From assembly GCA_977017645.1 (NCBI GenBank), contig OZ360231.1, positions 54,932,001-54,996,000 of the forward strand: DNA of 64,000 nucleotides, read 5' to 3'. The notes below the pieces were generated by a model that made no database searches, had not been told where the DNA came from, and saw nothing but the letters and a program-made list of their open reading frames with translations. Positions 12,343 through 53,936 of the stretch are shown here, in pieces (position 1 is the first letter of the stretch; each line of letters begins with the position of its first letter). The position numbers and the translations under genes are program-made. The stretch is from Torpedo marmorata (lineage: Eukaryota).

Positions 12343-12907
12343 AGAATCAGAATTTATTGACATGAACAAGTCACGAAATTCGGTGTTTTGCGGCAGCATC
12401 ATAGTGCAAACATTCATATTATGAACCATCTAACAACAATAATATAAAAAATAAAAATATAAATAATAGTGCAGGAAAAGTAAGGCAGTGTCTTTGGTTC
12501 ATTGATTATTCAGGAATCTGATGGCAACGGGGAAGAAGCTATCCTTGCACCGTTGAGTGCTCGTCTTTAGGCTCCTCTACCATTTTCCCGATGGTAGCAG
12601 AGTGAAGAGGGCATGGCCTGGGTGGTGGGGGTCTTTGAGGATAGAGGCTGCTTTTTTAAGACACCACCTCATGTAGATGACCTCGATGGAGTGGAGTCTG
12701 GTGCCTGTGATGTCGCAGGCCGAGTTAACAACTCTCTGGAGTTTTTTCTTGTCCTGAGATTTGGCGCCTCCATACCAGACAGTGATGCAACCAGCCAGAA
12801 TGCTCTCCACGGTACATCTGTATAAGTTTTCAAGAGTCTTCGGAGACATACCGAATCTCCTCAAGCACCTCACAAAGTATAGCGTGATTGCATCAACATG
12901 GATGCTC
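12343..12907 (-). mobile_element. Rex1/Babar-like LINE 3' fragment, inverted relative to its neighbour
   Basis: ORF 12577-12942 is nearly identical in peptide to 11342-12052. Tail CAGAATCAGAATTTATT on the + strand. Confidence 0.85.
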
Positions 12908-13012
12908 CCCATGCAGTCCCCAGCCTTGTCACCTCTCCCCAAATAGTCCCCAGCCCCCTCCTCCCCTACCCACTGTCACCCATCCCCATAGTCCCCGTCC
13001 CTGTCCACACCT

Positions 13013-13995
13013 CCCCACCGTCCACACCTCCCCACCGTCCACCTCTCCCCATACAATCCCCACCCCGTCCACCTCTCCCCATACAATCCCCACCCCGTCC
13101 ACCTCTCCCCATACAATCTCCACCCCGTCCACCTCTCCCCATACAATCGCCACCCCGTCCACCTCTCCCCATACAATCCCCACCCCGTCCACCTCTCCCC
13201 ATACAGTCCCCACCCCGTCCACCTCTCCCCATACAATCCCCACCCCGTCCACCTCTCCCATACAATCTCCACCCCGTCCACCTCTCCCCATACAATCCCC
13301 ACCCCGTCCACCTCTCCCCATACAGTCCCCACCCCGTCCACCTCTCCCCATACAATCTCCACCCCGTCCACCTCTCCCCATACAATCTCCACCCCGTCCA
13401 CCTCTCCCCATACAATCGCCACCCCGTCCACCTCTCCCCATACAATCCCCACCCCGTCCACCTCTCCCCATACAATCGCCACCCCGTCCACCTCTCCCCA
13501 TACAATCCCCACCCCGTCCACCTCTCCCCATACAATCCCCACCCCGTCCACCTCTCTCCATACAATCCCCACCCCGTCCACCTCTCCCCATACAATCTCC
13601 ACCCCGTCCACCTCTCTCCATACAATCCCCACCCCGTCCACCTCTCCCCATACAATCCCCACCCCGTCCACCTCTCTCCATACAATCCCCACCCCGTCCA
13701 CCTCTCTCCATACAATCCCCACCCCGTCCACCTCTCCCCATACAATCGCCACCCCGTCCACCTCTCCCCATACAATCTCCACCCTGTCCACCTCTCCCCA
13801 TACAATCGCCACCCCGTCCACCTCTCCCCATACAATCGCCACCCCGTCCACCTCTCCCCATACAATCCCCACTCCGTCCACCTCTCTCCATACAATCGCC
13901 ACCCCGTCCACCTCTCCCCATACAATCCCCACCCCGTCCACCTCTCCCCATACAATCGCCACCCCGTCCACCTCTCCCCATACAATCGCCACCCC
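13013..13995. repeat. 30-bp minisatellite, ~32 copies
   Basis: Unit CACCCCGTCCACCTCTCCCCATACAATCCC with CCC/CTC/CGC variants and one 1-nt deletion near 13260. Confidence 0.97.
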
Positions 13996-14119
13996 TGTTC
14001 TCCCGCTGGTTCCCACCGTTTCGCCACCACCCCCACCCACCTCCTTAAATTCTCCAGCCCCAATACAAGGTAATCAAGAGTCGTTCACTAGTGAGAAACA
14101 CGTTGGTAGAGAGAGACGA

Positions 14120-14800
14120 TAAGGCGCTAACGAAATGCAGGTCTCTCCAGTGGTTGGACTGCGCCCTGAAGCCGGCGACAAGGTGGGGACGGGCGGTCGG
14201 GGCGACTGGCCGGGCGAGGGGTCCCGAACGCGCTGCTCACCTGCTCGGCACGGCCGCCGAGGAGTAGGCGCTGCCTCTGCTCCCCGTCAGCCACTCCATC
14301 CGAGTGGCCTGACACCACGGTCATTTGTATGGCGCCGGTCTCTGCCATACTCCGTGATCTGACTCCTTCGAAGAACACGAAAGACGAAGCAAGTCGTGGT
14401 TTCGCTTGTCCCAAGTCGGATCCTAATCCCGGAAGTGGCGGCTTCAAGTGAAGTCTGGAGAAAGTTTCTGCGAGTTGCCGGAGGTGCGGGAAAGCTGAAG
14501 TCTAATTTTTGGACAGAACACGTTGGACATGGACGAGGACCCGTGTGGGTGTGTGGAACCTCTCTCCTTCCCCGGGTGCTTCCCACCAATGAAGCAATGT
14601 GCTGGTCACACCTCTTTAATCGCGCACAGAAACTGGTGGGTGTGAGAAAATGGTGAGAGCGGGGCTGGCGTAAGTACTGAAGTCGTACCTTGGAATTCAA
14701 AACTGAAAGTCTTTCCGTGCTCGTTCACCAGACACTGTCTTGTCGGGAGCATCGGGGACAACGGTGCTGAGGCTCAGGGGCGGTGTTAGCATCATACATA
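14120..14800. promoter_or_regulatory. CpG-island promoter of the C3orf52-like gene
   Basis: CpG-dense, non-repetitive, spans exon 1. ETS motif CCGGAAGT at 14429-14436. Confidence 0.65.
14241..14348 (-). CDS. C3orf52: C3orf52/TTMP-like protein, coding exon 1
   Basis: ATG at 14348 within a CpG island. MAETGAIQMTVVSGHSDGVADGEQRQRLLLGGRAEQ, then a CAG|GTGAGC donor. Phase 0 fits exon 2. Confidence 0.72.
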
Positions 14801-25852: not shown

Positions 25853-27210
25853 AGAAAGGTCTGGATGACCACTTGAATCACCCAGGCAGAGAAGGCTGCA
25901 GGCCAAGTGCTGGAAGATGAGATTAATATGGATGGGTGTACATGTAGGCCAAATAGCCTGCTTCCATGTTGTGTAACTATATGACTTTAGCAGGGAAGAA
26001 CCTAACTAGGGCTATTAATTAAAATGGATTGAAGAAATCCAACAGGAATTCAGAAGAAATCCTTTTACCATAAGAATTGTGAGCATGTGGAGCTGGTTAT
26101 AACAAGTACTTGAAGGGAACTCAAGGAGTAAATGTAGAGGAAGGGAATAGAGGGTTGCACTGATCTGTTTTCCTGAGGAATAATGTAGAAAGATCAAGTT
26201 GAGCAAAAATACCAAATGGCCTGCTTCTGTGTAACATCAACTATATAACATCACATACAAATTACTTTAAAATTGACTTAATAATTTATTAAATATGCAA
26301 GTCACTCTTATCACAAGGAGTCAGATTTGGTTTATTTTTTGCAGATGTAAATGATCAGATGCTGGAATCTGGAGAAAAAGAACACCTTCCTTACTTATCA
26401 CCATACTGCCCTCTCCCCGTCACTCATTTTCATCCCTCCCCGCCTGTCTCCTGGTCCAATCCACTTACTGCTAATGTTATGGACCATGACTGACCATTTG
26501 GACTGCGGACGGTCAGCAGGAAGGATGAAGTCTTTTGGAGTACACACTGGGACCAGGTACTGAAAGAGTTAACTTGCCCAGGACTTGGTGTACCCAGAGA
26601 GAGAGAGAGAGAGCAGAGAGAGACAGGCTGTGGAAAAGATACTTTGTTGCACTTTTGCAAAAGCAGGTGCAGACCTCTGCAAAAAGCAGACAGTTGGGAG
26701 TTGCAAAGGCTAGAGAACACAGCCAAATCCAGGCTTGTGCATCCCAGAGAAAAGGCTGGAAGAATAGCACATGGCCTCCTATCTCAGAGAAATTCTGAGT
26801 TAAAAGCAACTTCTGTGGAGAACAGGCGTGAGATCAGCGAGACCAGCTGTGAGATCCAAGCACACGCCTTTATCAGTGGTATACTGATCTGAATTCGCAA
26901 ACCTTATGAAAACACAAGAAGGGTGTGGTAAACCACTTTAGTATGTATATATGTATTGTGGCCTGAGGCAAGTATGACCATGACCTGTCTGTCTGTCCCG
27001 GTGACTCCTCCCCCCTTTCCCCTGGAATAAAGGCCTTGAGCCATTGACTCCTCCCTCAGTTCCGGGACAATCCAGCAGGGATCACCAGGTCAAAGTGTAG
27101 CTTAGCCCTGGCCTGATTTCTGGTATTAAAAGCCTATTGATTTCCTGCACTTCCAGACTCGCGTCTGTCATTGATAGGTACATCAATTTTAATACCAGTT
27201 TTAAAATCCG

Positions 27211-28236
27211 ATGGAGAATTTTCTGAGGCCGGACAAGCTGGACATCGACCCCCTGGCTCAAGACGCTGCAAGTGACTTTGAACTCTGGCTGCGCTGCTTC
27301 GTAGCCTTCCTGAGGTCGACCAGAGCGGTTACAAACGAGAATAAACTCGACATCCTCATGTCCAGGGTAAGCAAACGAGTGTATGGCACTGTCAGAGACT
27401 GTGATACCTATGAGGATGCCTTGGAAGCCCTCCGAAGGCTGTACCTGACGCCGGTGACCGAGGTTTTCGCGAGGCACCGGTTATCGCAACGGTACCAGCG
27501 ACCCGGAGAGTCGATCTCTGAATATATCCAGGACGTGATGCTCCTGGTGCGGGCGTGCGATTGCCGAGCCCTGACGGCTGAGCAACACGCCGAAATATTG
27601 GCAAGGGACACGATCATTATGGGGCTCAGGTCGGTTTACATTCGCCAGCGATTGCTGGAACACGCCGACCTGACCCTGAGATCTACCGTTCAGAATGCCC
27701 TCACGCTGGAATCGGCGCTCAAGAACGCTGACGCTATGCAGGCGCAGCCTGCCTCTTGGATCGCCCCAACCGCCAGCCCTGCAAGCAACGCGACGGCCGC
27801 TGCCGTCTACCGGGACCCGCTCGCCGCCGCCGACGCTATCCGTGAGTTGGCCGCTGCCGCCGCTACCCGGGAGCCCGCCGCCACCCGTGAGTTAACCGCT
27901 GCCGCTGTCACCCGGGAGCCCGAGAAGTGCTACTTCTGCGGGCTCGACAAACACCCACGCAAGCGCTGCCCGGCCCGAGACGCGACTTGTTCTAGCTGCG
28001 GCAAGAAAGGCCACTACGCAAAGGCCTGCCGCTCCAAGTCGCGTACGGGTCCGAGCAGCGCCGCGTGCGAAGTAAGGGAGCGGCCATCTTACCTGTCGTC
28101 ACTTCCGGCGGAGACCTCGTGCGAGGAATGGAGGCGGCCATCTTGGCCTTCAGCACTTCCGGTTTCAAGCAGCGCCGCGTGCGAAGTAAGGGAGTGGCCA
28201 TCTTACCAGTCGTCACTTCCGGCGGAGACCTCGTGA
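27211..28236 (+). CDS. Gag of element A (two Cys/His knuckles)
   Basis: 341-aa ORF with CYFCGLDKHPRKRC and CSSCGKKGHYAKAC. Ends at an in-frame TGA; the frame continues open into pol. Confidence 0.88.
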   Translation: MENFLRPDKLDIDPLAQDAASDFELWLRCFVAFLRSTRAVTNENKLDILMSRVSKRVYGTVRDCDTYEDALEALRRLYLTPVTEVFARHRLSQRYQRPGESISEYIQDVMLLVRACDCRALTAEQHAEILARDTIIMGLRSVYIRQRLLEHADLTLRSTVQNALTLESALKNADAMQAQPASWIAPTASPASNATAAAVYRDPLAAADAIRELAAAAATREPAATRELTAAAVTREPEKCYFCGLDKHPRKRCPARDATCSSCGKKGHYAKACRSKSRTGPSSAACEVRERPSYLSSLPAETSCEEWRRPSWPSALPVSSSAACEVREWPSYQSSLPAETS

Positions 28237-28437
28237 GAGGAATGGAGGCGGCCATCTTGGCCTTCAGCACTTCCGGTTTCTACATTTCCGGCGCGGCCAT
28301 TTTACAACCTCGCCGCGGCTCTGCCAGCACTTCCGGCGCCGCCATCTTGTAGCGACACGTGTGCGCTACGGGAGCTGCCATCAGCGTCGGATCAAGACGA
28401 CTCGTCGGATCAAGACTACGTCTCGACCCTGGCATCC

Positions 28438-31323
28438 GTGACGCTGGATCAGAGCGCGCCCCATCAGCTGTCCAGATCGATGATGGACATACTAGTTGAG
28501 GGGCATAAGACTACCTGCCTGTTCGACACAGGCAGTACTGAAAGTTTTGTCCACCCAGACACTGCCCAGCGCTGTGGCCTCACAATTGTACCGGTAAGCC
28601 AGAGGGTGGCCATGGCGTCTGGAACCCACACAACAGACATCCGGGGGGGTTGTGTGGCGAATATAGTAGTGCAGGGCACGGAATATCGCGGGTTTTCATT
28701 GATGGTCATGCCCCGTTTGTGTGCTCCTGTATTGCTGGGACTGGACTTCCAAAGCCACCTGCGAAGCGTCACCATGCACTATGATGGGCCCCACCCCCCG
28801 ATCGTTGTGACCAACCCCCAGTACTTGAATAATACGCCCCAGACTACCTGTGGTCTCTCCACGCTGAAGACCCAACCCCCGCCACTCTTCGCCAACCTGA
28901 CCCCTGACTGTAAGCCTGTAGCGACTAAAAGTAGGCGATACAGTGCAGGGGACAGGGCTTTCATTAAGGCGGAAGTGCATCGTCTACTGGGGGAAGGGAT
29001 CATAGCACCCAGTAACAGCCCCTGGAGAGCACAGGAAGTCGTGGTGAAGAACGGGGCTAAGAGCCGGATGGTGGTGGACTATAGCCAGACCATTAACCGG
29101 TTCACGCAACTGGATGCCTATCCGCTGCCGAGAATCGCGGATATGGTCAACCAGATTGCGCAGTATAAAGTATTCTCCACTATTGACCTAAAGTCGGCTT
29201 ACCACCAGCTTCCGATTCGCCGGGAAGACCGAGCGTACACCGCTTTCGAGGCGGACGGCAGATTATTCCATTTTCTGCGCGTCCCCTTCGGGGTAACAAA
29301 TGGGGTATCCGTGTTTCAACGGGAGATGGACAGGATCATTGACCAGTTCAAACTCACTGCCACCTTCCCGTACCTGGACGACATCACCATTTGTGGTCAT
29401 GATCGCCAGGATCACGATAGGAACCTTCGGAAGTTCCTACAGGCGGCTAAGACGCTGAACCTCACCTATAACGAGGAGAAATGCGTGTTCGGGACTACCC
29501 GACTCGCTATCCTGGGGTGCGTCGTGGAGAACGGGGTGATTGGACCCGACCCCGACCGCATGCGCCCCCTATTGGAACTTCCGATTCCCCTCACCCCCAA
29601 AGCCCTTAAACGATGCCTCGGGTTCTTCTCGTATTATGCGCAGTGGGTCCCAAACTACGCGGACAAAGCCCGACCCCTCGTCAAGTCCACCAAGTTTCCC
29701 CTTGCAGCGGAGGCACGTGAGGCTTTCGACCTCATAAAAGGGGACATCGCCCGAGCAGCGATGCACGCGGTGGACGAGTCGGAACCTTTTCAGGTGGAGA
29801 GTGACGCCTCGGACTTCGCACTGGCTGCTACCCTCAACCAGGCGGGAAGACCGGTAGCGTTTTTCTCCCGCACCCTTCAAGGCCCCGAAATTCGGCACTC
29901 CGCGGTAGAGAAAGAGGCCCAGGCCATTGTTGAGGCTGTTCGGCACTGGAGGCACTATCTCGCCGGAAAACATTTTACCCTGCTGACGGACCAGCGCTCC
30001 GTCGCATTCATGTTTAACAGCCAGCAGCAGGGTAAAATCAAGAATGACAAAATCATGAGGTGGAGAATAGAACTCTCCACCTACAATTACGACATCATGT
30101 ACCGGCCCGGGAAGCTCAACGAGCCCCCTGACGCTCTATCCCGGGGATCGTGCGCCAGCGCGCAGATCGACCGGTTATACTCCCTACACAACGACCTCTG
30201 CCACCCAGGAGTCACCAGGCTGTTCCACTTCATCAAAGCACGGAACCTGCCTTTCTCCCTGGATGAGGTCAGAACCATGACCAGCAGCTGCCGAGTCTGT
30301 GCGGAATGCAAACCGCAGTACTACCGCCCCGTCAGAGCACAGCTGGTCAAGGCCACACGCCCGTTCGAACGTCTCAGTGTAGACTTCAAGGGCCCCCTTC
30401 CCTCCACGAACCGCAATGTGTACTTCCTTAACATCTTCGATGAGTACTCGCGGTTCCCCTTTGCCATCCCCTGCCCAGATACCTCGGCGGCTTCGGCTAT
30501 CAAGGCCCTCCGCCAGGTATTCACCTTGTTCGGGTTCCCCAGCTATATCCATAGCGACCGGGGATCCGCGTTCATGAGCGAGGAGCTGCGACAGCATTTG
30601 CAGACCCGAGGCATCGCCACCAGTAGGACCACGGGGTACAACCCACGGGGGAACGGACAGGTAGAGAGGGAGAACGCCACTGTATGGACAGCTACACTAC
30701 TGGCCCTGAAATCAAAAGGGTGGCCAGTGGCCCGCTGGCAGGAGGTTCTCCCGGACGCCCTCCACTCTATACGATCCCTCTTATGTACTGCCACTAACGC
30801 TACCCCTCACGAACGTCTCTTTTCCTTTCCCAGAAAATCGACTACCGGGACTACCCTCCCTGCCTGGCTGACGTCCCCGGGACCGGTGCTACTCCGCAAA
30901 CATCTTCGGAGTAGCAAGTACGAGCCCTTGGTCGAGAGGGTGCAGCTGATCCATGCGAACCCGCAGTACGCATTCGTGGTTTTCCCCGACGGGCGGGAAG
31001 ACACGGTGTCAATACGGGACCTGGCGCCTGCAGGAGCGTCAGAAGAGGTCCCCGACAGCGGGAACGCCGGGTCACAGCTGCCCCCTCCGGCCCATCCGCC
31101 TCCCAGCACGGCGGGTACAACGCCCCGGCCGGAGCTGGAAAGGCCACAAGCCAGGCAGGAGGCAAACCAGACCCAGACCCACCCTACAACACCTACTCCC
31201 ATTCCACAACCACAACCATCTCCGCAGGCATCACGTACCCTCATTCCACAACCACTACCATCACCGCTGGTACTACGCAGGTCACAGCGGCGAATCCGGC
31301 CGCCGGTTAGACTCAACCTGTAG
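28438..31323 (+). CDS. Pol of element A (protease, RT, RNase H, integrase)
   Basis: LFDTGS; YPLPRI...DLKSAYHQ...PFG...YLDD; ESDAS; HHCC; VDFKG...HSDRG...GQVER. Same frame as gag. Confidence 0.93.
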   Translation: MTLDQSAPHQLSRSMMDILVEGHKTTCLFDTGSTESFVHPDTAQRCGLTIVPVSQRVAMASGTHTTDIRGGCVANIVVQGTEYRGFSLMVMPRLCAPVLLGLDFQSHLRSVTMHYDGPHPPIVVTNPQYLNNTPQTTCGLSTLKTQPPPLFANLTPDCKPVATKSRRYSAGDRAFIKAEVHRLLGEGIIAPSNSPWRAQEVVVKNGAKSRMVVDYSQTINRFTQLDAYPLPRIADMVNQIAQYKVFSTIDLKSAYHQLPIRREDRAYTAFEADGRLFHFLRVPFGVTNGVSVFQREMDRIIDQFKLTATFPYLDDITICGHDRQDHDRNLRKFLQAAKTLNLTYNEEKCVFGTTRLAILGCVVENGVIGPDPDRMRPLLELPIPLTPKALKRCLGFFSYYAQWVPNYADKARPLVKSTKFPLAAEAREAFDLIKGDIARAAMHAVDESEPFQVESDASDFALAATLNQAGRPVAFFSRTLQGPEIRHSAVEKEAQAIVEAVRHWRHYLAGKHFTLLTDQRSVAFMFNSQQQGKIKNDKIMRWRIELSTYNYDIMYRPGKLNEPPDALSRGSCASAQIDRLYSLHNDLCHPGVTRLFHFIKARNLPFSLDEVRTMTSSCRVCAECKPQYYRPVRAQLVKATRPFERLSVDFKGPLPSTNRNVYFLNIFDEYSRFPFAIPCPDTSAASAIKALRQVFTLFGFPSYIHSDRGSAFMSEELRQHLQTRGIATSRTTGYNPRGNGQVERENATVWTATLLALKSKGWPVARWQEVLPDALHSIRSLLCTATNATPHERLFSFPRKSTTGTTLPAWLTSPGPVLLRKHLRSSKYEPLVERVQLIHANPQYAFVVFPDGREDTVSIRDLAPAGASEEVPDSGNAGSQLPPPAHPPPSTAGTTPRPELERPQARQEANQTQTHPTTPTPIPQPQPSPQASRTLIPQPLPSPLVLRRSQRRIRPPVRLNL

Positions 31324-32232
31324 ACATAATAATGACTATGTAAATAATCTATGTTTATTTGTGTTTTTTTAATTACGGTATCCACTTCACCCCCCCGTCG
31401 GACTTGTTCTAAAAGAAGGGGTGAATGTGGTAAACCACTTTAGTATGTATATATGTATTGTGGCCTGAGGCAAGTATGACCATGACCTGTCTGTCTGTCC
31501 CGGTGACTCCTCCCCCCTTTCCCCTGGAATAAAGGCCTTGAGCCATTGACTCCTCCCTCAGTTCCGGGACAATCCAGCAGGGATCACCAGGTCAAAGTGT
31601 AGCTTAGCCCTGGCCTGATTTCTGGTATTAAAAGCCTATTGATTTCCTGCACTTCCAGACTCGCGTCTGTCATTGATAGGTACATCAAAGGGAACGTCAT
31701 CAGAGAAGAAAAACAAGTATTTGTAAGCATAAACAGTCATTGTCTCTCTCCAACGTTCATTCAGAAGTACTTCTACCAGCACACCAAGCTGAATTTGAAA
31801 CCTGAACTTAGAGAGTGGAATTTTGTGGACTGTATTATTCTTTTTTTGACTGACTTGTTTTTATGACTGACCTGGGGTTTTTTGGGGAAAGTTTTTCCAT
31901 TTTTACATAAGGGTTGGGCACAGACTGTATGGTCTGGGCTTTACACACACACACCTTTTAGATAAGAATAGTGTTTATAGATGTTTATAGTGGGGTTAAT
32001 TGTTGTGAAATATATGTTTAATTGTGTTTAATAAATATAAATTTCAATTTTACCCCTTTTGCATTGCGTCTTCTGTCATTGCTGGTTTGATTTTGTAACA
32101 AAATTGGGGGCTTGTCGTGGGATTTGAATCAAAATCCATCTTGGTAATTGAAGGAATTCCAGTTTGGTTTAAGGCATTCCTTTTGTAAAGCTAATTAAAA
32201 GCTAGTGTGTGTGTAACGAAAAACCAGCAACA

Positions 32233-34036
32233 ATGGATGTAGAACATTTTTTGGAATCACCTGAACCTGATACTTTAAAAAAGGCGAAAAAGGAACAGTT
32301 AGTGGCTATAGCAACAAAGCTGGGCATTGCTTCTGTAAAAGCATCTATGAAAAAGGCAGAGATTGGGAGAAAAATTGTCAAATACTATATAAAAGAAAAA
32401 AAGTTTGAGGAGAGCATGTGAGAGCAGTTTCCCAAGGGTAAACCTTCTGAAAACATACAGTTGGAACTAAAGAAATTGGAATTGGAGGCAGCCAGGGAAC
32501 AAAAGAAATTAGAATTGGAGGCAGAAAGAAATTAGACATGGAAATGGAACAAAAGAAATTTGACATGGAATTGGAATTGGAACAAAAGAGATTAGACTTA
32601 GAGAACGATGAGAAAAATAGGAGATATGAGCTGGAAAAGATGAGGTTGGAAAATGAGAGGAGACAAGAAGAGCACCAAGATCAAATTCGTCATCCTGCTG
32701 TGGGGTTTTTGGCTAGTAGGGAAGTTAGGTTGGTTCCTCCATTTGAGGAGGCAGAAATAGATAAGTACTTCCAACATTTTGAGAAGGTGGCTGTAAATTA
32801 AAATGGCCACAAGACCAATGGTCTCTTATGTTACAAAGTGTAATTAAAGGAAAAGCTCAGCAAGCTTATTGTACTGTTACCACGGAGCAAGCTGCTGATT
32901 ATGAAACGGTAAAAAAGGCTATAGTCCAGGCTAATGAATTAGTTCCAGAGGCTTATAGACAGAAGTTTAGAAATTTAAAAAGATTAGCAACCAAATCTTA
33001 TACAGAGTTTGCCTATGAAAAGGTTGTGTGTTTTGACAGGTGGTGCACATCTAAGGCGGTAAACAATGATTACAATCAATTGAGAGAATTGATAATAATC
33101 GAGGAGATAAAAAGGTGTGTTCCTGAGGATATTAAGGCATACTGAGATGAAAAGGAGGTGAAAACTTGGCAAAATTCAGCTAAGTTAGCAGATGAATATG
33201 CTTTAACCCACAAGCCTAAGTGGACGTCAGGTAGAATTTTCCAAAAGGTCACTGTGGATAATCAGAAGCAAGTGGAAAGTAAGTTTGGAAGTGATGTTAA
33301 GAAAAGGGATGAAGGAAAGTGGAAAAGGGAAAACCATTTGGGTCCCATTTGCCACTACTGTAGGAAGGCTGGTCATATGATAGCAAGCTGTCCAGTGTTG
33401 AAAAAGAAGAGAGAAAAGGATGCAACACCTAATGCTTGTAATCAGAGTGAGAAGAGGGATAACACCCAGGAAGGAGATAAATTTACTGACAAAGTTAAAG
33501 ATGTATTTAAACCTTTTGTGACTGATTGTTTTGTTTCAGTTAAGGCAGGATCAAAACAAGTTCCAGTGAAAATCTTGCGAGATACTGGAGCCGCTCAGTC
33601 ACTTGTGTTAGATAGTGTCTTGGAATTTTGTGAAGCTACTGACACCGGTGACATAAATTTAATTAAAGGAATTAGTGGTGATGTTGAGTCCATTCCTTTG
33701 CACAAAATATTATTGGACTAAGGCTTGGTGGAAGGACCAGTTATAATAGGAGTGAGATCAGAGTTGCCAGTAGAAGGAGTCTCACTGTTGTTAGGCAATG
33801 ACTTGGCCAAGGGTAAAGTAGTTCTTGCAGTGCGAATGACCACTAAGCCAGTCATTGATAAGTCAGAGAAAGACTCTGATATTTATCCGGCATGTGCCAT
33901 AACCAGGGCCATGTCTAAGAAAAATGTCACTGTAGAGAAGGCAGTGGAAAATAACATGGTGAAAAAAAAAGACAGTGATAATCAAGAAAAACTGGAAAAG
34001 GTTGAGCAATCTCCTATGTTACACCCATCCACTGAT
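32233..34036 (+). pseudogene. disrupted gag/protease of the Gmr1-like element
   Basis: PPFEEAEIDKYFQHFEKVA, KGKAQQAY...ELVPEAYRQKFR (SCAN-like capsid), CHYCRKAGHMIASC and ILRDTGA, with several stops and frameshifts. Confidence 0.85.
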
Positions 34037-34050
34037 AAGACACCTAAAGG

Positions 34051-37000
34051 TACCACCACCACTTTAGCGGTTGTACCGCTTCTCGAGCGACGGAGGGGGG
34101 TAGCACTGGGATATATACAGTCCAGTGTTAATTATGGGATGTTCTTTTTTCTTGCTTTTCTATTATTTCACTCTATTTGAGGAGAAAATATGTAATCAAC
34201 GGAATAGGAGGGATGCGTCGGCGGATCTGACAGATAGAGAATGTTTAAAATTTAATTATGGTTGATTCTAGAAGTATTAATTTTGTAAGTATTAATGTTA
34301 ACGGGCTTAATAATCCAATTAAAAGGAAAAAAACTTTGGCATATATTAAAAAATTAAAAGTAGATATAGCTTTTTTACAGGAAACACATTTGACTGATAA
34401 AGAACATCAAAAGTTGAAGAGAGAATGGGTAGGACATGTAGTAGCTTCGTCTTTTAATTCTAAAGCGAGAGGAGTAGCAATTTTAATCAATAAAAAATTA
34501 CCATTTAAAATACAATCAGTAATGACGGATATAGCTGGTAGATTTGTTATGGTGCATTGTCAAATCTATTCAGAAACATGGACTTTTTTAAATTTATATA
34601 TTGTAAACCCAGAGGATGAACAATTTATTCAAGATATCTGTTTACATTTATCTGAAGCTAAGGAAAATATTTTAATTGGGGGAGATTTTAATTGTTGTCT
34701 TAATACGAATATGGATAAAACATCTAAAACATCTGTTAAACCTAAAATAGTTAAAAGAATTATTAATTTAATGGATGATTTAAATTTAGTAGATATTTGG
34801 AGAAAGGTAAACCCTAGAGAAAAAGATTATTCATTTTATTCTTTTCGACATAACTCATTCTCGAGGATTGATTTATTTTTAATATCGTCACAAATTCAGG
34901 ATAGAATAACTCAAATTTCTTATAAAGCAAGAATAATTTCAGACCATTCACCGTTATTAATGACTTGTATAATTCCAGAGAAAGAAAAAACTGTATATAA
35001 TTGGAGATTAGATTCTTCTTTATTAAATAGAAAAGATTTTTGTGATTATATGAGAAAAGAAATTCAGGAATTTTTAAGAATTAATAATAATTCAGTTGAT
35101 GATAAGTTTATAATTTGGGAATCTTTAAAAGCATATTTAAGTGGATTGATAATAAGCTTCTCGGCAAAAATTAGAAAAGATTATTTGAAGGAAGAAGAAA
35201 AATTGGAGGGGGAGATTGAAGTTATGGAAAAAGATTTTCAAAGAAACAAAACAATTCTTAAGAGACAACGTTTAATGGGGAAAAAATTACATTATAATAT
35301 ATTACAAACTCGAAAAATGGAAAAATTAATTGGTAGAACAAAGCAAAGATATTATGAATTGGGAGAAAGAGCACATAAAGTTTTAGCATGGCAATTAAAG
35401 AAAGAACAAGTTTCCAAAACTATAAATGCTATAAAGAAAAGTAATGGAGATATAACTTATAAACCTCAAGAAATAAACAATTCTTTTAAAGAATATTATC
35501 AAAATTTATATACTTCACAAATGAGTCAAGATGTTGTAAAAATTGATGATTTTTTATCCAAAATTATGTTGCCCAAATTAAATAGTTCTAATAGAGATTT
35601 GTTAGATCTACCAATTACAATGAGAGAAGTAGGTGAAGCTTTATCATCATTGAATAGTGGTAAATCTCCTGGTGATGATGGATTTCCTGTAGAGTTTTAT
35701 AAGAAGTTTAAAGATTTATTGATACCTATATATATGGAAGTATTGACTCAAATAAAGGAAACTCAGTTATTACCGAAAACTTTTTTAAATGCTGTTATTA
35801 CAGTTATACCAAAGAAGGATAGAGATGTATTGAAAACTGAATCGTATAGACCTATATCATTGTTAAATGTAGATTATAAATTAATGGCGAAAATCTTGAC
35901 AAATAGACTAGCTAAGTTTTTACCATTTTTAATACATCCAGATCAAGCAGGATTTATTAAAAATAGATATTCAAAGGATAATATAGCAAGATTAATAAGT
36001 TTGATTAATTTACAAAAGAAGAAACAGGATTTACCGTTAGTGATAGCATTAGATGCAGAAAAAGCATTTGATAGGTTAGAGTGGAAGTTTTTATTTAAGG
36101 TTTTAGAGAAATATGGATTTGGAAATACGTTTATAAATTGGATTAAAACTATATATAAGGAACCTATAGCTAAAGTAATTACAAATGGTCAAATATCATC
36201 TAAATTTTCTTTGACACGGTCAACAAGACAAGGATGTCCATTGTCACCTGCCTTATTTGTATTGGCAATAGAACCGTTGGCGGAAATGATCAGGAAAGAT
36301 ATGAATATAAAAGGGATAAAAGTAGGTGCAGAAGAGCATAAAATTAGTTTGTTTGCAGATGATGTATTAATATATATGACAAAGTCTATTGAATCACTTC
36401 AACAATTAGATAAAATATTGAGGGATTATGGTGAAATATCTGGATATAAAATAAATTCGGATAAAAGTGAGATAATGGCTTTATCTCAAGGAGATTATAC
36501 TAAATGTAAAGAAGTTACAAAATTTAAATGGGCTAAAGAAGCTATTAAATATTTAGGAGTTAAAGTGGATACAAAGTTAGAAAATTTATATAAATTAAAT
36601 TACATACCTTTATTTCAGAAAATAAAGAAGGATTTGGATAATTGGAAAGATTTACCTATAACTTTAATAGGAAGAGTGAACTGTATTAAAATGAATATTT
36701 TTCCAAGAGTTCAATATCTTTTTCAATCTATACCTTTTGGTATTCCTCAAAATTTTTTTAAAGATTTAAAAAGTATTATTAGAAAGTTTTTATGGAAAGG
36801 AAAACTGGCAAGAGTAAGTATGGATAAATTAACTTGGGAATATGAAATGGGTGGATTACAACTTCCTAATTTTCAATATTATTATAAGGCAGCACAATTA
36901 AAATTTATAAATGAATTATTTGATTTAACTAAAAACACGGCATGGATTAATATAGAATTAAGTAATATAGGAGAAAGAAATAAGGAAGATATTATTTATA

Positions 37001-38329
37001 AATGGAATTCTAAATTATTATTGATTAAAAAGAAAAAGTCACCGATTATTAGACATTTATTAGAGATTTGGAATCAATTAGATAATGAAATAGGGCGAAA
37101 AGGATCAATCTCTTTAAATATGCCATTATATCAGAATTTATTATTACCATTTTCTATGGATAATCAATTTTTAAAATTATGGTATCAAAAAGGAATTAAG
37201 AAGATTAAAGATTGTTTTGAGGCAGGAAGATTTGTTACTTTTTCCAGATTGAAAGAAAAATTTGGAATAATGGATAATACAATTTTGGCTTATTATCAAG
37301 TTAAAGGATTTTTAGTTGAGAAATTAGGGAATCAATTAATATCTCCTAGACAGGATGGGTTAGAGTTACTAATTACTAATGGAAATGTTAATAAATTTAT
37401 ATCGTAAATGTATAAATTATTTCAGAAAAAGATACCTAAAGTAGGATTGCATAAATCTAGATTAAATTGGGAATCAGATCTAAATACTAATATAGATGAA
37501 CAACACTGGAAAGAATTGTGTAAATTGAGTATGACTAAGATTATTAATGTTAGATATAGATTAGTACAGTATAACTTTTTTCATCAATTATATATAACAC
37601 CCAAAAAATTAAAGAAATTCAATCCGGCATTGTCAGATATGTGTTTTAGATGTAAAGATGAAATAGGTTCTTTTGTACATTGTACATGGTCATGTTTGAA
37701 AATTAAAAATTTTTGGTCTAAAGTCAAAGATTTTTTAGATAGAATTTTTAATATTATGATTCCAATGGATCCTATGATATTTTTATTTGGAGATATAAAA
37801 AAAATGAGTATTGGAAATAGATTAAATATGTACCAAATAGAATTTTTACGAATTGTGTTAGCTATTTCAAAAAAATGTATTGCTATTACTTGGAAATCAG
37901 ATTTAGATTTGAATTTAGATAGATTACATGCAGAGTTACGTTCTTGTATACCACTCGAAAAAATTACGTATAATTTACGAGACAAATATCATTTCTTTTT
38001 GAAAATTTGGAGCCCATATATGAGAATTATGGGTATGAATTAATTCTCTAAAAGTTAGTACCGCTGACAAAAGTATCCTCCATATACAAATAGAGTTAGT
38101 CTGAAATAGTTTTCTCCTCATACTAACTCTCTTAACTTTATTTCTCATTCTATTTCTTTCCTTTTAACTAACATTTCTATATATTCTTTTTTTTTTCTCT
38201 TTATTAGAATAGTGTGGGAGGGAGGGAATGGGGGATGGTAAAAATATCACATGTATTTTGAATAATATATTATTTTTGACTAAGTATTTTGTGATTTTAA
38301 AAATTAAATAAAAATGAAAAAAAAAAAAA
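34051..38329 (+). mobile_element. L1/Tx1-like LINE with full-length ORF2, truncated upstream of ORF2
   Basis: 14-bp TSD AAGACACCTAAAGG at 34037-34050 and 38330-38343; poly-A tail; no ORF1. Confidence 0.95.
34258..38043 (+). pseudogene. L1-like ORF2 (APE endonuclease, RT, cysteine-rich region) with one in-frame stop
   Basis: NVNGL, LQETH, GGDFN, SRID, SDH; DAEKAFD, RQGCPLSP, FADD. TAA at 37405-37407 where the copy near 978 has CAA. Confidence 0.9.
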
Positions 38330-38478
38330 AAGACACCTAAAGGCACAGATTTGTCACTATCCCGACAGGAGTTAACAGCAAGGCAAAAGGACGATCCTGA
38401 TCTTGCTGAGGTGAGGGATAAGGTTCTCTCTGAAGAGGAGATTAAAAAGGTGCCAGTGGGTTATTATGAAAAAGATGG

Positions 38479-40392
38479 GTGTTGATGAGAAAGTGGAGAC
38501 CATGTGATGTTCCTGCCAATGAAGAATGGGCAGTAGTGCAGCAGGTTGTGATCCCTAAAGTATATAGGGATGCAATAATAACTTTGGCTCATAGTACACC
38601 CTTGGGTGATCACCTTGCGGTGAAGAAAACTATAAGGAAGATAATGAAACAATTTTATTGGCCCAGTTTGAGAAGGGAGGTGATAAGCTTTTGCCGGGCC
38701 TGTCACACTTGTCAGGTAGTGGGTAAACCTAATCAGGGTCCCCCGGTGGCACCCTTGCAACCTATCCCTGCTTTCAGTGAGCCTTTCTCGAGAGTAATTG
38801 TGGACTGTATTGGCCCATTGCCCAAAACCAAAGCGGGGAATGAGTATTTGTTAACAATTATGTGTGCAGCCACCAGATTTCCAGAGGCCATTCCTCTGAG
38901 AAACATTAAAGCAAAGACAATTGTAAAGGCAATGGTAAAGTTTTTCACCTTGGTAGGTTTGCCAAGGGAAATTCAATTAGATCAGGGCAGTAATTTCATG
39001 TCAGGCGTTTTCCAACAAGTGGTTGATGGACTGGGAGTTAATCAGATTGTATCCTCTGCGTACCATCCAGAAAGTCAAGGGGCCTTGGAGAGGTTCCATT
39101 CGACTTTGAAAAACATGATTAGAACCTATTGTTGTGAAAAGGAAAAGGATTGGGATGAGGGGGTTCATTTCTTGTTATTTGCAGCGAGGGAGTCTGTCCA
39201 AGAATCACTTGGTTTTAGTCCATTCGAGTTAGTTTTCGGACATGAGGTGAGAGGTCCTTTAAGATTATTAAAAGAACAGTTGATTAATAGTGATGTGCAT
39301 TTAAATCTGTTAGATTATGTTTCAAAATTTAAGTATCGGTTGAATAGGGCTTGTGAGATGGCAAAGGAGAATTTAAAGGCCACTCAACAGAGAATGAAGG
39401 TTTGGTATGATCGAAAGGCTAAGATGAGAACTTTTAAACCTGGTGAGAATGTATTAGTTCTGTTTCCCATCCATTCAAATCATCTTAGGGCTAGATTTTC
39501 AGGACCCTATAGAGTTAAGTCAAAAATTAATGATGTCACTTATGTCATAGAAACACCTAATCGCAGACGAGACACACAGGTCTGTCATGTAAATATGATT
39601 AAGCCATATTTTGAACAGGTGCCGCAAAAAGGGACTGAACATTTACCAGAGGTACTGGTTATTGACAGGGGTAAGGAGGAGACAGATAAAACCAGATTCA
39701 GAGAGGGTCATGGGACTGTTCATTCTCGGGGTTATGTAGTAGGACAGGGGAAGTTGGCGCCAGTAGAGGCAAAGGTTGTGACTATTTCCGAGTTCCCTGT
39801 TCCAACTGGTAAGAAAACTCTGAGGAGGTTCCTGGGAATGATTGGCTACTACCGCAAGTTCTGTAAAAACTTTGCTGATCTTGCGCTCCCTCTCACAAAT
39901 TTGCTTAGAAAGAAAGAAAAATTTGTATGGTCGACAGGTTGTCAGGAAGCATTTGTCAAATTGAAAGCCATGTTATGCCACCAACCTGTGCTTAAGTCAC
40001 CTAATTTAGAACAGCCGTTTTCTTTAGCCGTGGATGCCAGCGATGAAGCTGTGGGCGCGGTACTGTTACAGAAGAAGAACGAAGAGGACATTGACCATCC
40101 GGTATCCTACTTCTCGAAGAAGTTCAATGATCATCAAAGGAATTATTCAACCATAGAAAAAGAATTGTTGGCTCTTGTGTTGGCTCTACAACACTTTGAT
40201 GTGTATATCTCTACAGCTCAAAAACCACTCATAGTGTATACTGACCATAATCCATTGGTTTTTCTTTGTGAAATGAAAAATAAGAATCGACAGTTGTTGA
40301 ATTGGAGTCTAATTTTGCAAGAATATGATTTGGTAATCACACATATAAAAGGTAAAGATAATGTAATTGCTGATTGTCTTTCGAGATGTTAA
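38479..40392 (+). pseudogene. integrase fused to an RT C-terminal remnant and RNase H of the Gmr1-like element
   Basis: H..H..CHTC, IVDCIGPLP, LDQGSNF, GALERFH, then GYVVGQG...RRFLGMIGYYRKF...AVDAS...ADCLSR. The RT core (YxDD) is absent. Confidence 0.88.
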
Positions 40393-49447: not shown

Positions 49448-52400
49448 TGTGGTAAACCACTGTTACATGTATTGTGGGCTGGGGATAAGTCTGGGCATGT
49501 CCTGCTGTCTGTCCCGGTGGCTCCTCCCCCTTCCTCCCCCGAATAAAGGCCCTTGTGCCACTGCTCCACCCCCAGTCCGGGATAGATCAGCAGGTCTCAG
49601 CAGGTCAACTGCAGCTCCCTTTTATAGCTAATAAAAGCCTACTATTCTTGCACTACTTCCTGCCTCTCGGGAATCATTGATAGGCCTATCAATTTTATTA
49701 GCTATAAAGTCTGATGGAGAGCGTCCTGAGACCGGATAAGTTAGACATCGATCCTCTAGCTCCAGACGCCGGTAACGCTTTTGAACTCTGGCTGCGTTGC
49801 TTTGAGTCCTTCTTAAGGACGATCAAGGTGAAAAACGAGGACGAAAAACAGACGATCCTCGTGTCCAGGGTAAGCCCTCGGGTATACTCGACAATCCGGG
49901 ATTGTCAAACGTACGAGGAGGCTATGGACGCTTTGAAAAGACTGTACATAATGCCCGTGAACGCGGTCTACGCAAGGGACAGGCTATCAACGCGGCAGCA
50001 GCGGCCCGGGGAGTCGATCTCTGAATTTGTACGAGATATACAGTCGCTGGTGCGGGCGTGCGATTGCAGAGCGCTGACGGCTGAGCAGCATGCGGAACTG
50101 CTGGGGAGAAATCAGGTCGGTATACGTGGGCCAGCGGCTGCTGGAGCACGCCGACCTGACTTTCCGTTCCGCGGTTCAACTGGCCCACACGCTGGAGGCC
50201 GCGCTGCGGAACTCTGATGCTATGCAAGCGCGCGACCTTCAGCCGGCCTCGTGGACAGCCCTGACACCCAACCCTGCCGGTGATCTGACCACTGCCGCCG
50301 TCTGCCGCGACCCGATCGCCGCCGCCGCCATCCGTGAACTGACCGCTACAGCCGTTAACCGAGAGCCCAAGAAATGCTATTTCTGCGGGCTCGAGAAGCA
50401 CCCTTGCAAACGCTGCCAGGCCCGAGACGCGACCTGCTCCAGCTGCGGCAAGAAAGGCCATTACGCAAAGGCCTGCCGCTCTAATCCGCAAGCGGGTCCG
50501 AGCAGCGCCGCGTGTGAGATTCGGGAGTGGCCATCTTACCTTCCGTCACTTCCGGCGTTGTACTCACCCACGGTTGCGACCTCGTGGAAGAGTGGAGGCG
50601 GCCATCTTGGACACCGGTACTTCCGGCTCTGCCATCTTACAGCTCCACATCGGCACTTCTGGCACTTCCGGCGCCGCCATCTTGCAGCTCCAGCCATGAC
50701 ACGTGCGACTCACGGAGGCGGCCATCTTCTTCAGCGCCGGATCAAGACTACATCCTGACCCTAGCATCCGTCACCCTCGACCAGAGTGCACCCCACCAGC
50801 TGTCCCGATCCATGATGGACATCCTGGTTGAGGGGCACAAGACCACCTGCCTGTTCGATACAGGCAGCACGGAGAGCTTTATACATCCGGACACAGTACA
50901 GCGATGTGGCCTCACTACAGTACCGGTAAGCCAGAGGGTGGCCATGGCTTCCGGGTCGCACACAATGGACATCCGGGGGGGTTGTGTAGCGAACATTGTA
51001 GTACAGGGCACAGAATGCCGGGACTTTTCATTACTTGTCATGCCTCGTTTGTGTGCGCCGGTACTACTGGGACTTGAATTCCAGAGTCACCTACGAAGTG
51101 TCACGATGCGCTACGACGGGCCCCACCCTGCAATCATGGTAGTTAACCACCAGTATCTTAACAACGGGCCTCAGACTACCTGTGGCCTCTCCACACTTAA
51201 GATCTCGCCCCCGTCGCTATTAGCCAACCTGACCCCTGACTGTAAGCCCGTGGCAACTAAGAGCAGGCGACTATTGGAGGAGGGGATCATCAAACCGAGT
51301 AATAGCCCCTGGAGAGCCCAAGTAGTCATGGTAAAGAACGGGGCCAAGAGCAGGATGGTGGTGGACTATAGTCAAACGATCAACAGGTTCACACAACTGG
51401 ACGCATACCCGTTACCACGAATCGCGGATATGGTGAACCAAATAGCCCAGTACAGGCTATTTTCGACTATAGACCTTAAGTCAGCTTATCACCAGCTCCC
51501 TATCCGCCGGGAGGACCGCACGTACACCGCTTTTGAGGCGGATGGCAGGCTGTTTCATTTCCTGCGTGTCCCCTTCAGAGTCACAAATGGGGTGTCCGTG
51601 TTCCAGCGGGAGATGGACAGAATAGTTGACCAATTTAAGCTCAAAGCCACCTTCCCATACCTGGACGACATCACCATATGTGGTTATGATCGCCAGGACC
51701 ATGATAATAACCTTCGGAGGTTCCTGCAGGCGGCCAAGGCGCTAAACCTCACATACAATAAAGATAAATGCGTGTTCGGGACCATCCGACTCGCTATTCT
51801 GGGGTGTGTCGTTGAGAACGGGGTTATTGGACCCGACCCCGACCGCATGCGCCCCCTGCTGGAACTTCCGCTTCCCCACACCCCCAAAGCCCTTAAATGA
51901 TGCCTGGGGTTCTTCTCGTACTATGCGCAGTGGGTCCCTAATTACGCGGATAAAGCCCGATCCCTTGTCAAGTCCACCACGTTTCCCCTTGCATCGGAGG
52001 CACGTGAGGCTTTTGATCTCATAAAAGGGGACATTGCCCGAGCAGCAATGCATGCGGTGGATGAATCGATACCTTTCCAGGTGGAGAGTGACGCATCAGA
52101 CTTCGCGCTGGCTGCTACCCTCAACCAGGCGGGAAGACCGGTGGCATTCTTCTCACGGACCCTCCAAGGCCCCGAAATTCGGCACTCCGCGGTTGAGAAA
52201 GAGGCCCAGGCCATAGTGGAGGCTATTAGGCACTGGAGGCACTATCTCGCCGGTAAGCACTTTACCCTGCTGACGGATCAACGCTCTGTTGCGTTTATGT
52301 TTAACAACCAGCAGCGGGGTAAGATCAAAAACGATAAAATCATGAGGTGGAGAATAGAGCTCTCCACCTACAATTACGATATCCTGTACCGACCCGGGAA

Positions 52401-53936
52401 GCTCAATGAGCCCTCCGATGCTCTATCCCGGGGATCGTGCGCCAGCGCGCAGATCGACCGATTGTACTCCCTCCACTGTGACCTCAGCCACCCAGGAGTT
52501 ACCAGGCTGTTCCACTTCGTGAAAGCCAGGAACCTGCCCTACTCCCTGGAAGAGGTCAGAACAATGACCAGCAGTTGCCGAGTCTGCGCGGAGTCCAAAC
52601 CACAATTCTACCGCCCCGACAAGGCACAGCTGGTCAAAGCCACCCGCCCTTTTGAACGACTCAGCATCGATTTCAAGGGCCCCCTTCCCTCCACGGACCG
52701 CAATGTGTATTTCCTCAATATCATTGACGAATACTCGCGGTTCCCCTTTGCCATTCCCTGCCCCGATACCTCGGCCATCTCTGCCATTAAAGCTCTTCGC
52801 CAGATATTTACTCTATTCGGCTTCCCCAGCTATATACATAGCGACCGGGGATCAGCTTTTATGAGCGAAGAGCTACGACAGTACCTGCAGGCCCGGGGCA
52901 TCGCCACTAGTAGGACCACGGGGTACAACCCACGGGGCAACGGACAGGTGTAAAGGGAGAACGCCACCGTTTGGAAAGCCACGCTCCTAGCCCTCAAGTC
53001 AAAAGGGTTGCCGGTCTCCCGCTGGCAGGAAGTTCTCCCGGAGGCCCTCCACTCCATCCGGTCCCTGCTGTGCACTTCTACTAATGTCACCCCCCACGAA
53101 CGACTTTTCTCCTTCCCCAGGAAGTCGACCACCGGAACCACCCTACCTGCTTGGCTGACGTCCCCGGGAACTGTGCTGCTCCGCAAGCACCTTCGGAGTA
53201 GCAAATACGAACCCATGGTCGAGAGGGTGCAGTTAGCCCATGCTAACCCTCAGTACGCCTACGTGGTCTTCCCTGATGGGCGGGAAGACACCGTATCGAT
53301 ACGAGACCTGGCGCCCGCAGGAGCACCGGGAGAGGCCCTCGACAATGAAAACCCCTTGTCGCAGCCCCCCCCACCCCCCCAGCACGACAGCCCCAGCACC
53401 CTCGCCGGTGCCGGATGTACTGCAAGCCAGGCAGGAGGCAACTCTGCTGCAAACCAGGCAGGAGACAACCCTGCCATCCCCCCTATCACCACAGCCCGCC
53501 CCGTCACCACGGGTACTGCGCAGGTCGCAGCGGCGGATCCGACCGCCTGATCAGCTCGACCTGTAAATGTATATATGTATATATTTGTATATATCTGTTT
53601 TACACTTTGTATTTTACTCTCCATTGTATTTGTAAGATAACCACAGTGGCCACGTCACCCCGTTGGACTCTTTTAAAAAAAGGAGGGGTGAATGTGGTAA
53701 ACCACTGTTATATGTATTGTGGGCTGGGGATAAGTCTGGGCATGTCCTGCTGTCTGTCCCGGTGGCTCCTCCCCCTTCCTCCCCCGAATAAAGGCCCTTG
53801 TGCCACTGCTCCGCCCCCAGTCTGGGATAGATCAGCAGGTCTCAGCATGTCAACTGCAGCTCCCTTTTATAGCTAATAAAAGCCTACTGTTCTTGCACTA
53901 CTTCCTGCCTCTCGGGAATCATTGATAGGCCTATCA
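49448..53936 (+). mobile_element. small Gypsy LTR retrotransposon (element B, older relative of A)
   Basis: 244-bp LTRs 49448-49691 and 53693-53936 (5 substitutions counted). 5-bp TSD CCATG. PPT AAAAAAAGGAGGGG. Confidence 0.96.
49714..53566 (+). pseudogene. disrupted gag-pol of element B
   Basis: Fragments 49714-50217, 50090-50758, 50527-51900, 52048-52953 and 53008-53550 are highly similar to element A. Frameshifts, stops at 51898 and 52951, and a short deletion at the RT start. Confidence 0.9.

Follow-up and report, generated by a model that had tools for sequence, protein, structure and literature searches.

Introduction

How is reverse transcription primed in a retrotransposon whose 5′ LTR is complementary to the sequence directly beyond it, and what does this pairing do to the poly(A) hexamer that it covers? 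The question is raised by two elements, A and B, in a 64,000-nucleotide stretch of Torpedo marmorata contig OZ360231.1 (hereafter, the window). The initial annotation had proposed that one helix may both block premature polyadenylation at the 5′ LTR and supply a primer by internal cleavage; all of its coordinates proved right, and the parts of its proposal are taken up below where the evidence bears on them. An overlap of primer and poly(A) signal is of interest because it offers, in a small space, a way to examine how a pair of identical LTRs can serve opposite functions.

To our knowledge, experimental tests of self-primed reverse transcription are confined to the Tf1-type elements of fission yeast; Repbase entries reportedly describe some self-primed animal Gypsy families, which may bear on the novelty of the present case. 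In Tf1 the primer lies at the 5′ end of the RNA (PMC10085805), and the replicating RNA of Tf2 starts at R (PMC5341516). Self-priming has also been predicted from LTR-PBS complementarity for the plant Copia element TAR and for Tcn1, which belong to another superfamily and to the chromoviruses, respectively, and for which the available text mentions no overlap with a poly(A) signal (PMC6317226). Neither self-priming in the animal group treated here or in Mag nor a primer holding a poly(A) signal was found reported in the open literature searched (including PMC2774666, PMC6238403, PMC3601003, PMC13524379, PMC6934838, and PMC12440569).

Architecture of Elements A and B

Elements A and B are sister Gypsy retrotransposons (branch lengths 0.047 and 0.053 in a quick tree computed without bootstrap). 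The 5′ LTR of A (26924..27185, + strand; 262 nt, TG...CA) and its 3′ LTR (31426..31687, +) show no differences, and the pair is flanked by the TSD AAGGG (26919-26923 and 31688-31692). Between the LTRs lie gag (27211..28236, +), with two Cys/His knuckles and an in-frame stop at its end, pol (28237..31323, +), encoding protease, RT, RNase H, and integrase, and a polypurine tract (31411..31425, +). TG...CA LTRs, a TSD, a polypurine tract, and gag followed by PR-RT-RH-IN assign A to Ty3/Gypsy, and A is a young Gypsy retrotransposon. The gag translation contains two Cys-X2-Cys-X4-His-X4-Cys motifs, with a weak zf-CCHC match on the second, and the best solved-structure relatives are Ty3 RT and Gag-Pol. 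Among the best 120 of 1658 matches, the named proteins of highest identity (75-84%) belong to rays and a catshark, and a sea anemone follows at ~60%; many unnamed assemblies within the same best 120 of 1658 also stand at ~60% identity. By themselves these matches would make a cartilaginous fish the probable host. Element B has a 5′ LTR at 49448..49691 (+; 244 nt; TSD CCATG) and a 3′ LTR at 53693..53936 (+), with 5 differences in 244 nt between them (98% identical).

The pol of A has no Pfam match to a chromodomain up to E=1 in its last 240 aa and none at 0.001 over its whole length; judged from the encoded protein by this chromodomain test, A and B are outside the Tf1/sushi group. [quoted passage not shown] The LTR ends of A and B also resemble Mag C motifs (PMC3601003).

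A 114-nt tandem duplication (28046-28273) at the end of A gag includes the in-frame stop (28234-28236) that separates gag from pol; this stop may be read through or may be a lesion.

Pairing across the 5′ LTR Boundary

The putative self-primer segment of A (27120..27131, +), whose predicted primer 3′ end at 27131 stands in a register common to 33 families, forms 12 Watson-Crick pairs with a primer-binding site at 27187..27198 (+), which is complementary to the element's own LTR. Likewise, the corresponding segment of B (49621..49636, +), with AATAAA at 49630-49635 inside it, forms 16 Watson-Crick pairs with 49693..49708 (+). In both elements the partner begins 1 base past the terminal CA of the LTR, and the paired LTR segment ends 55-56 nt before its partner; the loop of the A helix (27132..27186, +) comprises the rest of R, U5, and one spacer base, and forms inner stems in the folds. 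Given that a pseudo-primer control over 3931 internal positions per element reached at most 10 bp against the element's own LTR, helices of 12 and 16 bp at a fixed place are not due to chance. Folding of the helix region gives z -5.5 in A (91 nt) and z -1.8 in B. No tRNA-type primer site was seen in A or B, neither of which has the TGG start after the LTR that a neighbouring element has.

Of the three duplexes in the Tf1 'pretzel', the central one is present here and the inner stem beside it occurs in 20/33 families; centroid folds of the A and B region contain no third duplex 3′ of the PBS. One minimum-energy fold of A adds 5 pairs (27115-27119 with 27204-27208) across a 5-nt bulge that are not in the centroid, and the helix so extended spans 17 positions, near the 16 of B.

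Conservation of the Helix among Relatives

Relatives were fetched with an alignment of 46 pol proteins, which yielded 80 of 492 related metagenome loci, and a further 10 loci came from bacterial-labelled assemblies (L081-L090), these last being probably eukaryotic contamination or carry-over; a scan of IMG/VR found neither relatives nor LTR matches. A gag start was present in 51 loci, 48 of them with at least 110 nt upstream, and in 43 of these 48 a helix with at least 11 of 13 Watson-Crick pairs is anchored at the CA of the LTR, with G-U pairs over the 13 positions in 0/43; the five loci without it are L007, L020, L044, L052, and L075. The comparisons below use 33 families (A, B, and 31 relatives), drawn from the 54 loci flagged among 92 after unrelated inverted repeats were dropped and near-identical copies merged by hand, some close sisters remaining.

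Helix length across the 33 families is 11-19 Watson-Crick pairs, of which the lower bound is not a result, since an 11-pair minimum was imposed when the set was built. With positions numbered from the primer 3′ end, cognate pairing holds at 0.97-1.00 from -1 to -11, vs 0.40-0.48 between families at variable positions; it is 0.91-0.73 at -12 to -14, declines further through -16, and stands at background from -17. G-U pairs are absent from the first 14 helix positions and are not enriched at the distal helix edge either (4/46 non-Watson-Crick cells vs 0.14-0.19 expected), whereas the stem directly after the primer end, found in 20/33 families, contains 12 G-U in 112 pairs. A helix free of G-U beside a stem that contains it argues that the binding site is rewritten with the primer as template, with which the strict Watson-Crick pairing fits; such copying is also suggested by Tf1 cDNA ends, about half of Tf1 cDNAs being described as carrying a copied PBS at the 3′ end (PMC11042837). 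The primer site begins 1 base past the LTR's CA in 32/33 families and 2 bases past it in one, 21-70 nt separate primer end from primer site, and the register is fixed, with a T-rich stretch at -15 to -12, A/T at -11 (32/33), and G at -10 (31/33).

These regularities bear on the reading that the helix is regulatory only, serving poly(A) or translation control while a host RNA, e.g., a tRNA fragment, primes. Such a role would leave unexplained a partner placed, in 32 families, exactly where the primer must end, a site sequence that changes from family to family in step with its LTR partner, an absence of wobble pairs next to a stem with 12/112, and the lack of a TGG start like that of the neighbouring element's primer site; we regard it as highly improbable. 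The helix is thus supported as a signature of self-priming, and self-priming in this element group appears very probable.

Two other sources of a primer were considered, of which the first was rejected and the second set aside. A primer made by splicing, in the style of BEL/Pao, does not suit a pairing that is contiguous in the LTR, and most LTRs have no donor upstream; a tract resembling an acceptor does precede the primer more often than in shuffles by a crude score, but it is strong in only 5/31 families and absent in A. In B, 49612-49627 is splice-acceptor-like, with a pyrimidine tract and an AG just inside the primer, and similar sequences occur in 4 more of 31 families. Priming by the RNA 3′ end, suggested by primers that end in AAA, would presumably be blocked by the poly(A) tail.

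Where the RNA Begins

Tf1-like priming from the first bases of the RNA, operating outside the Tf1/sushi group, is the best reading and somewhat the more probable one. Helix length is nearly independent of leader length (rho 0.13, n=26), and the abrupt end of pairing near -16, whatever the leader, fits a primer 5′ end there. As the helices run 3.4 nt past -11 on average vs 0.7 expected, the RNA start would lie upstream of the -11 motif in most families; starts would then spread over -11 to -19. A pyrimidine-purine step is also found at -8 to -6 in 33/33 families, and this test does not single out -12 to -10.

Three relatives have very short LTRs of ~80-125 nt (L050, 2571-2706; L058, 3961-4052; L063, 126-189). 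The LTR sequence preceding -11 amounts to only 39 nt in L058, 40 nt in L063, and 44 nt in L050, so these compact relatives cannot start 60 nt upstream within the LTR. Their helices are 11-12 bp, and each has an all-A/T 8-mer at -34 to -26; in L050, TATATA stands at -28 and an Inr-like TTAGTT places its A at position -11, A/T boxes being weak evidence in LTRs as A/T-rich as those of the compact relatives. The LTR starts of L087, L042, and L057 are unreliable and were left out.

The alternative is that the A/B lineage begins its RNA farther upstream, as the initial annotation held when it pointed to a conserved GAATAAAGGCC (27025) followed by CAGT. That observation is borne out: an 11-nt GAATAAAGGCC block (27025..27035, +, in A) is identical in B, and an Inr-like BBCABW (27055..27060, +, with its A at 27058) follows, the latter also being readable as a CA cleavage site. 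The module of B (49541..49576, +) has AATAAA at 49542 and an Inr-like CCCAGT with its A at 49574, and the distance from the first A of AATAAA to the A of CAGT is 32 nt in both elements (27026/27058 and 49542/49574). A C-rich tract lies upstream (27005..27014, +; a 10-nt block identical in B), which we take to be Sp1/KLF-like. The GAATAAAGGCC block may be a TATA-like element, an unused poly(A) signal, or a duplication relic.

On the first of these options, and for the A/B lineage only, an ERV9-like promoter would start the RNA at 27058/49574, 62 nt (A) and 47 nt (B) before the helix, and RNase H would cut inside it to leave a capped primer of 60-75 nt. This is possible, if unlikely. In its favour, the 32-nt spacing is rare among the window's other AATAAA (BBCABW at exactly 32 nt in 2/122, at 31-33 nt in 4/122); the 11-nt block is identical in A and B; a precedent exists in ERV9/LTR12, where AATAAA stands ~30 nt before a BBCABW-like start with Sp1 just upstream (PMC11853044); and a perfect AATAAA kept in U3 should be costly unless functional. 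A long primer is also mechanically possible, the Ty1/Ty3 primer not being inherited and plus-strand transfer proceeding via R-U5 (PMC5371799). Furthermore, a TATA-like box is lacking 30 nt ahead of the helix in both A and B, which counts against a start at the helix edge.

Against this stand several observations. As A and B are sisters, the module counts as one observation, and its GAATAAAGGCC block is one of nine identical A/B LTR blocks of at least 7 nt. Its layout can equally be read as a poly(A) signal followed by a CA site, as the LTR of the neighbouring element illustrates. The module is absent from the LTRs of the relatives, including L083, the nearest relative of A and B in the tree, which has 61 nt of LTR before -11; A(A/T)TAAA 60-120 nt upstream occurs in 1/29 relatives, and there it lies outside the LTR. 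The helices of A and B are as strict and end as abruptly as those of the rest of the group. A three-way junction 5′ of the helix, considered as an RT stop, was rejected: A and B fold alike there, not better than shuffles (z 0.13 and -0.84), which leaves no significant upstream structure to halt RT at the helix edge. Finally, the model cannot hold in the compact relatives, in which only 39-44 nt lie between the LTR start and the primer. ERV9/LTR12 is, moreover, an unrelated element, and the function of the A/B module is putative.

A start about 60 nt upstream, as the initial annotation had it, is matched by the position of the module and is not established, the module being limited to A and B and the compact LTRs offering only 39-44 nt; of the claim that the helix supplies a primer by internal cleavage, the self-priming part is supported and the internal cut is not established.

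The module may alternatively have no role in transcription and be what is left of an ancient duplication, within the LTR, of the sequence around the primer end, which seems unlikely. The segments 27022-27063 and 27120-27154 can be aligned with their hexamers in register, GAATAAAGCC is found at the primer end of several relatives, and the LTRs of A and B are the longest among those measured; shuffles, however, score as well in 64/1000 cases for A and 427/1000 for B. Such a relic is compatible with the favoured Tf1-like reading and competes only with the promoter reading.

A DPE at +28 from 27058 was considered and rejected, the GGTCA match lying 2-3 nt off. An AGGTCA half-site occurs in both LTRs (27087-27092 in A; 49592-49607 in B), and in B it forms a direct repeat with a 4-nt spacer, presumably like a nuclear-receptor element.

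The Poly(A) Hexamer and Its Predicted Occlusion

The paired LTR segments hold the hexamers that the initial annotation placed there, namely ATTAAA in A (27125..27130, +; 3′ LTR copy at 31627-31632) and the AATAAA of B; AATAAA occupies the helix hexamer position in B, and contigs show a further family A copy with AATAAA there as well. A CA follows the hexamer at +18 in A and +16 in B, that of A (27148-27149, within the helix loop) being a candidate cleavage site. Of the candidate poly(A) signals, the ATTAAA/AATAAA in the helix is the likelier one, and the copy that would serve is that of the 3′ LTR.

The competing signal is the upstream AATAAA, which might itself work, with cleavage at the CA of CAGT and a start further upstream (TATATA at 26946 in A). 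The helix segment would then fall in U5, and a primer cut from one RNA would be extended on a second, uncut RNA. This proposal is very unlikely. A CA does stand at +26 past the upstream AATAAA in A and B, and the same AATAAA plus CA pattern marks the neighbouring element's LTR, whose single AATAAA lies near its end (32030 and 41317). Nevertheless, no G/U-rich stretch was seen by eye after the upstream hexamer, relatives lack any such upstream signal, the 5′ LTR of B has no TATATA match, and the downstream hexamer occurs in A, B, and the further copy only in two working forms.

With the helix hexamer as the preferred signal, the predicted cost of opening it at the 5′ LTR is 3.0-5.1 kcal/mol in A and 2.8-7.6 kcal/mol in B. 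The initial annotation had stated that the partner lies outside the LTR, so that the 3′ copy is free; indeed, no match longer than 6 bp follows the 3′ LTR of either element, and the 3′ hexamer of A, its local partner gone, is free (0.1 kcal/mol to open), but that of B is partly paired in another fold (3.3 kcal/mol). According to these models, concealment of the hexamer at equilibrium is specific to the 5′ LTR in A and less cleanly so in B. Because every start site tried gives a hidden hexamer, predicted occlusion is independent of an upstream start. In the folding calculations, the hexamer stays unpaired until its partner is transcribed, 57 nt later.

Across the group, a canonical hexamer lies within the primer in 19/33 families; among families with a TAAA core, 19/28 have AATAAA or ATTAAA vs 4 expected from base composition, an excess that shared ancestry inflates. 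The 14/33 families with no canonical hexamer in the primer fall on several separate branches, 3 of the 14 having one in the loop, outside the helix, and occlusion is therefore not required group-wide. The helix hexamer would tend to lie in or near the primer: strong-stop DNA would end at the cut, the RNA 3′ end would then have to pass the primer end, and the signal stands 10-30 nt before cleavage. Of the proposal that the helix blocks 5′ polyadenylation, the predicted hiding (3-8 kcal/mol to open) survives, and its generality fails on the 14 families in which the primer has no canonical hexamer.

Silencing of the retroviral 5′ site is also attributed to promoter proximity, U3 elements, and U1 (PMC2645353 and PMC3694450), so 5′ poly(A) silencing here has known alternatives to the helix in promoter proximity, U3 upstream elements, and U1. 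As to U1, a splice-donor-like AGG/GTAAGC in A gag (27364..27372, +) is a candidate site 242 nt past the hexamer, and B has a donor-like gag site too, at 49870; the distance 3′ of the hexamer is 240-242 nt in A and B, and 2/24 relatives share a site at the same place. As a conserved U1 site, the gag donor was rejected, its conservation being not above the codon background (48/84 codons identical). The internal-cleavage model described above extends to these features: its hexamer would stand at +68/+57, as in HIV-1, and would have to be silenced actively, a task for the helix, perhaps with U1 at the gag donor. This extension is likewise possible yet unlikely; a predicted opening cost of 5-7 kcal/mol from the upstream start and a donor-like site comparable to that of HIV-1 at 195 nt (PMC3694450) speak for it, and the codon background speaks against it. 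[quoted passage not shown] Occlusion itself is, on the modelled folds, real, though probably of secondary importance.

Proposed Mechanism and Comparison with Known Systems

On the Tf1-like reading, A and B would belong to a broad set of animal Gypsy elements lacking a chromodomain and primed in the manner of Tf1. The start of the replicating RNA would coincide with the 5′ edge of the helix or precede it by a few bases (~27115-27122 in A; 49619-49626 in B), and the first 11-19 bases of this RNA, whose complementarity is observed, would fold onto the site past the LTR. By analogy with Tf1, the RNA would be severed where the helix stops and the inner stem usually starts (in A, between 27131 and 27132), and the released 3′ end would prime minus-strand DNA. 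The plus strand would later copy the primer into the binding site, which would keep the pairing strictly Watson-Crick. [quoted passage not shown] At the 5′ LTR, the hexamer would stand no more than ~10 bases from the cap, without upstream elements, and would also be hidden by the helix. The poly(A) signal would thus sit inside the primer mainly for reasons of space, hiding being a side benefit, and the upstream AATAAA-Inr module of A and B would be a lineage-specific extra, either a second promoter or a relic.

By analogy, then, A and B would work like Tf1 (PMC10085805, PMC5341516, and PMC4600332). They share with Tf1/Tf2, Tj1, and the Tf1/sushi group the absence of a tRNA-type site, a primer site complementary to the LTR, and stems beside the helix (PMC10085805). 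They differ in having no chromodomain match, a helix of 11-19 bp, and a primer whose 3′ end is of TAAA type and in many cases contains the poly(A) hexamer; the start, which is at the primer in Tf1/Tf2, is only predicted here. The 5′ LTR of HIV-1 resembles that of A and B in placing the hexamer in R, within a helix, a donor-like site following ~240 nt on in A and B (PMC2645353 and PMC3694450); the HIV-1 polyA hairpin, however, lies inside R and hence at both ends, whereas the partner in A and B is the primer-binding site, outside the LTR.

Self-priming in chromodomain-less animal Gypsy elements, if true, would point to a broader origin or spread of the mechanism, and control by tRNA fragments would be expected not to reach these elements. 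An upstream start, if true, would change the rule that a self-primer consists of the first bases of the RNA.

Other Features of the Window

Element A interrupts the 5′ LTR of a larger element, which has its LTRs at 26475-32100 and 40525-41387 and the TSD CTAA; in the pol of this host element (26475-41387), integrase precedes RNase H, a domain order that we take to be Gmr1-like. The primer site of this larger element, at 32105, begins with TGG and is of tRNA type. Inside it lies a LINE with an intact-looking endonuclease-RT ORF of 1052 aa (window 34249-37407). Elsewhere, a 30-nt tandem array of ~40 copies occupies window positions 12869-14122.
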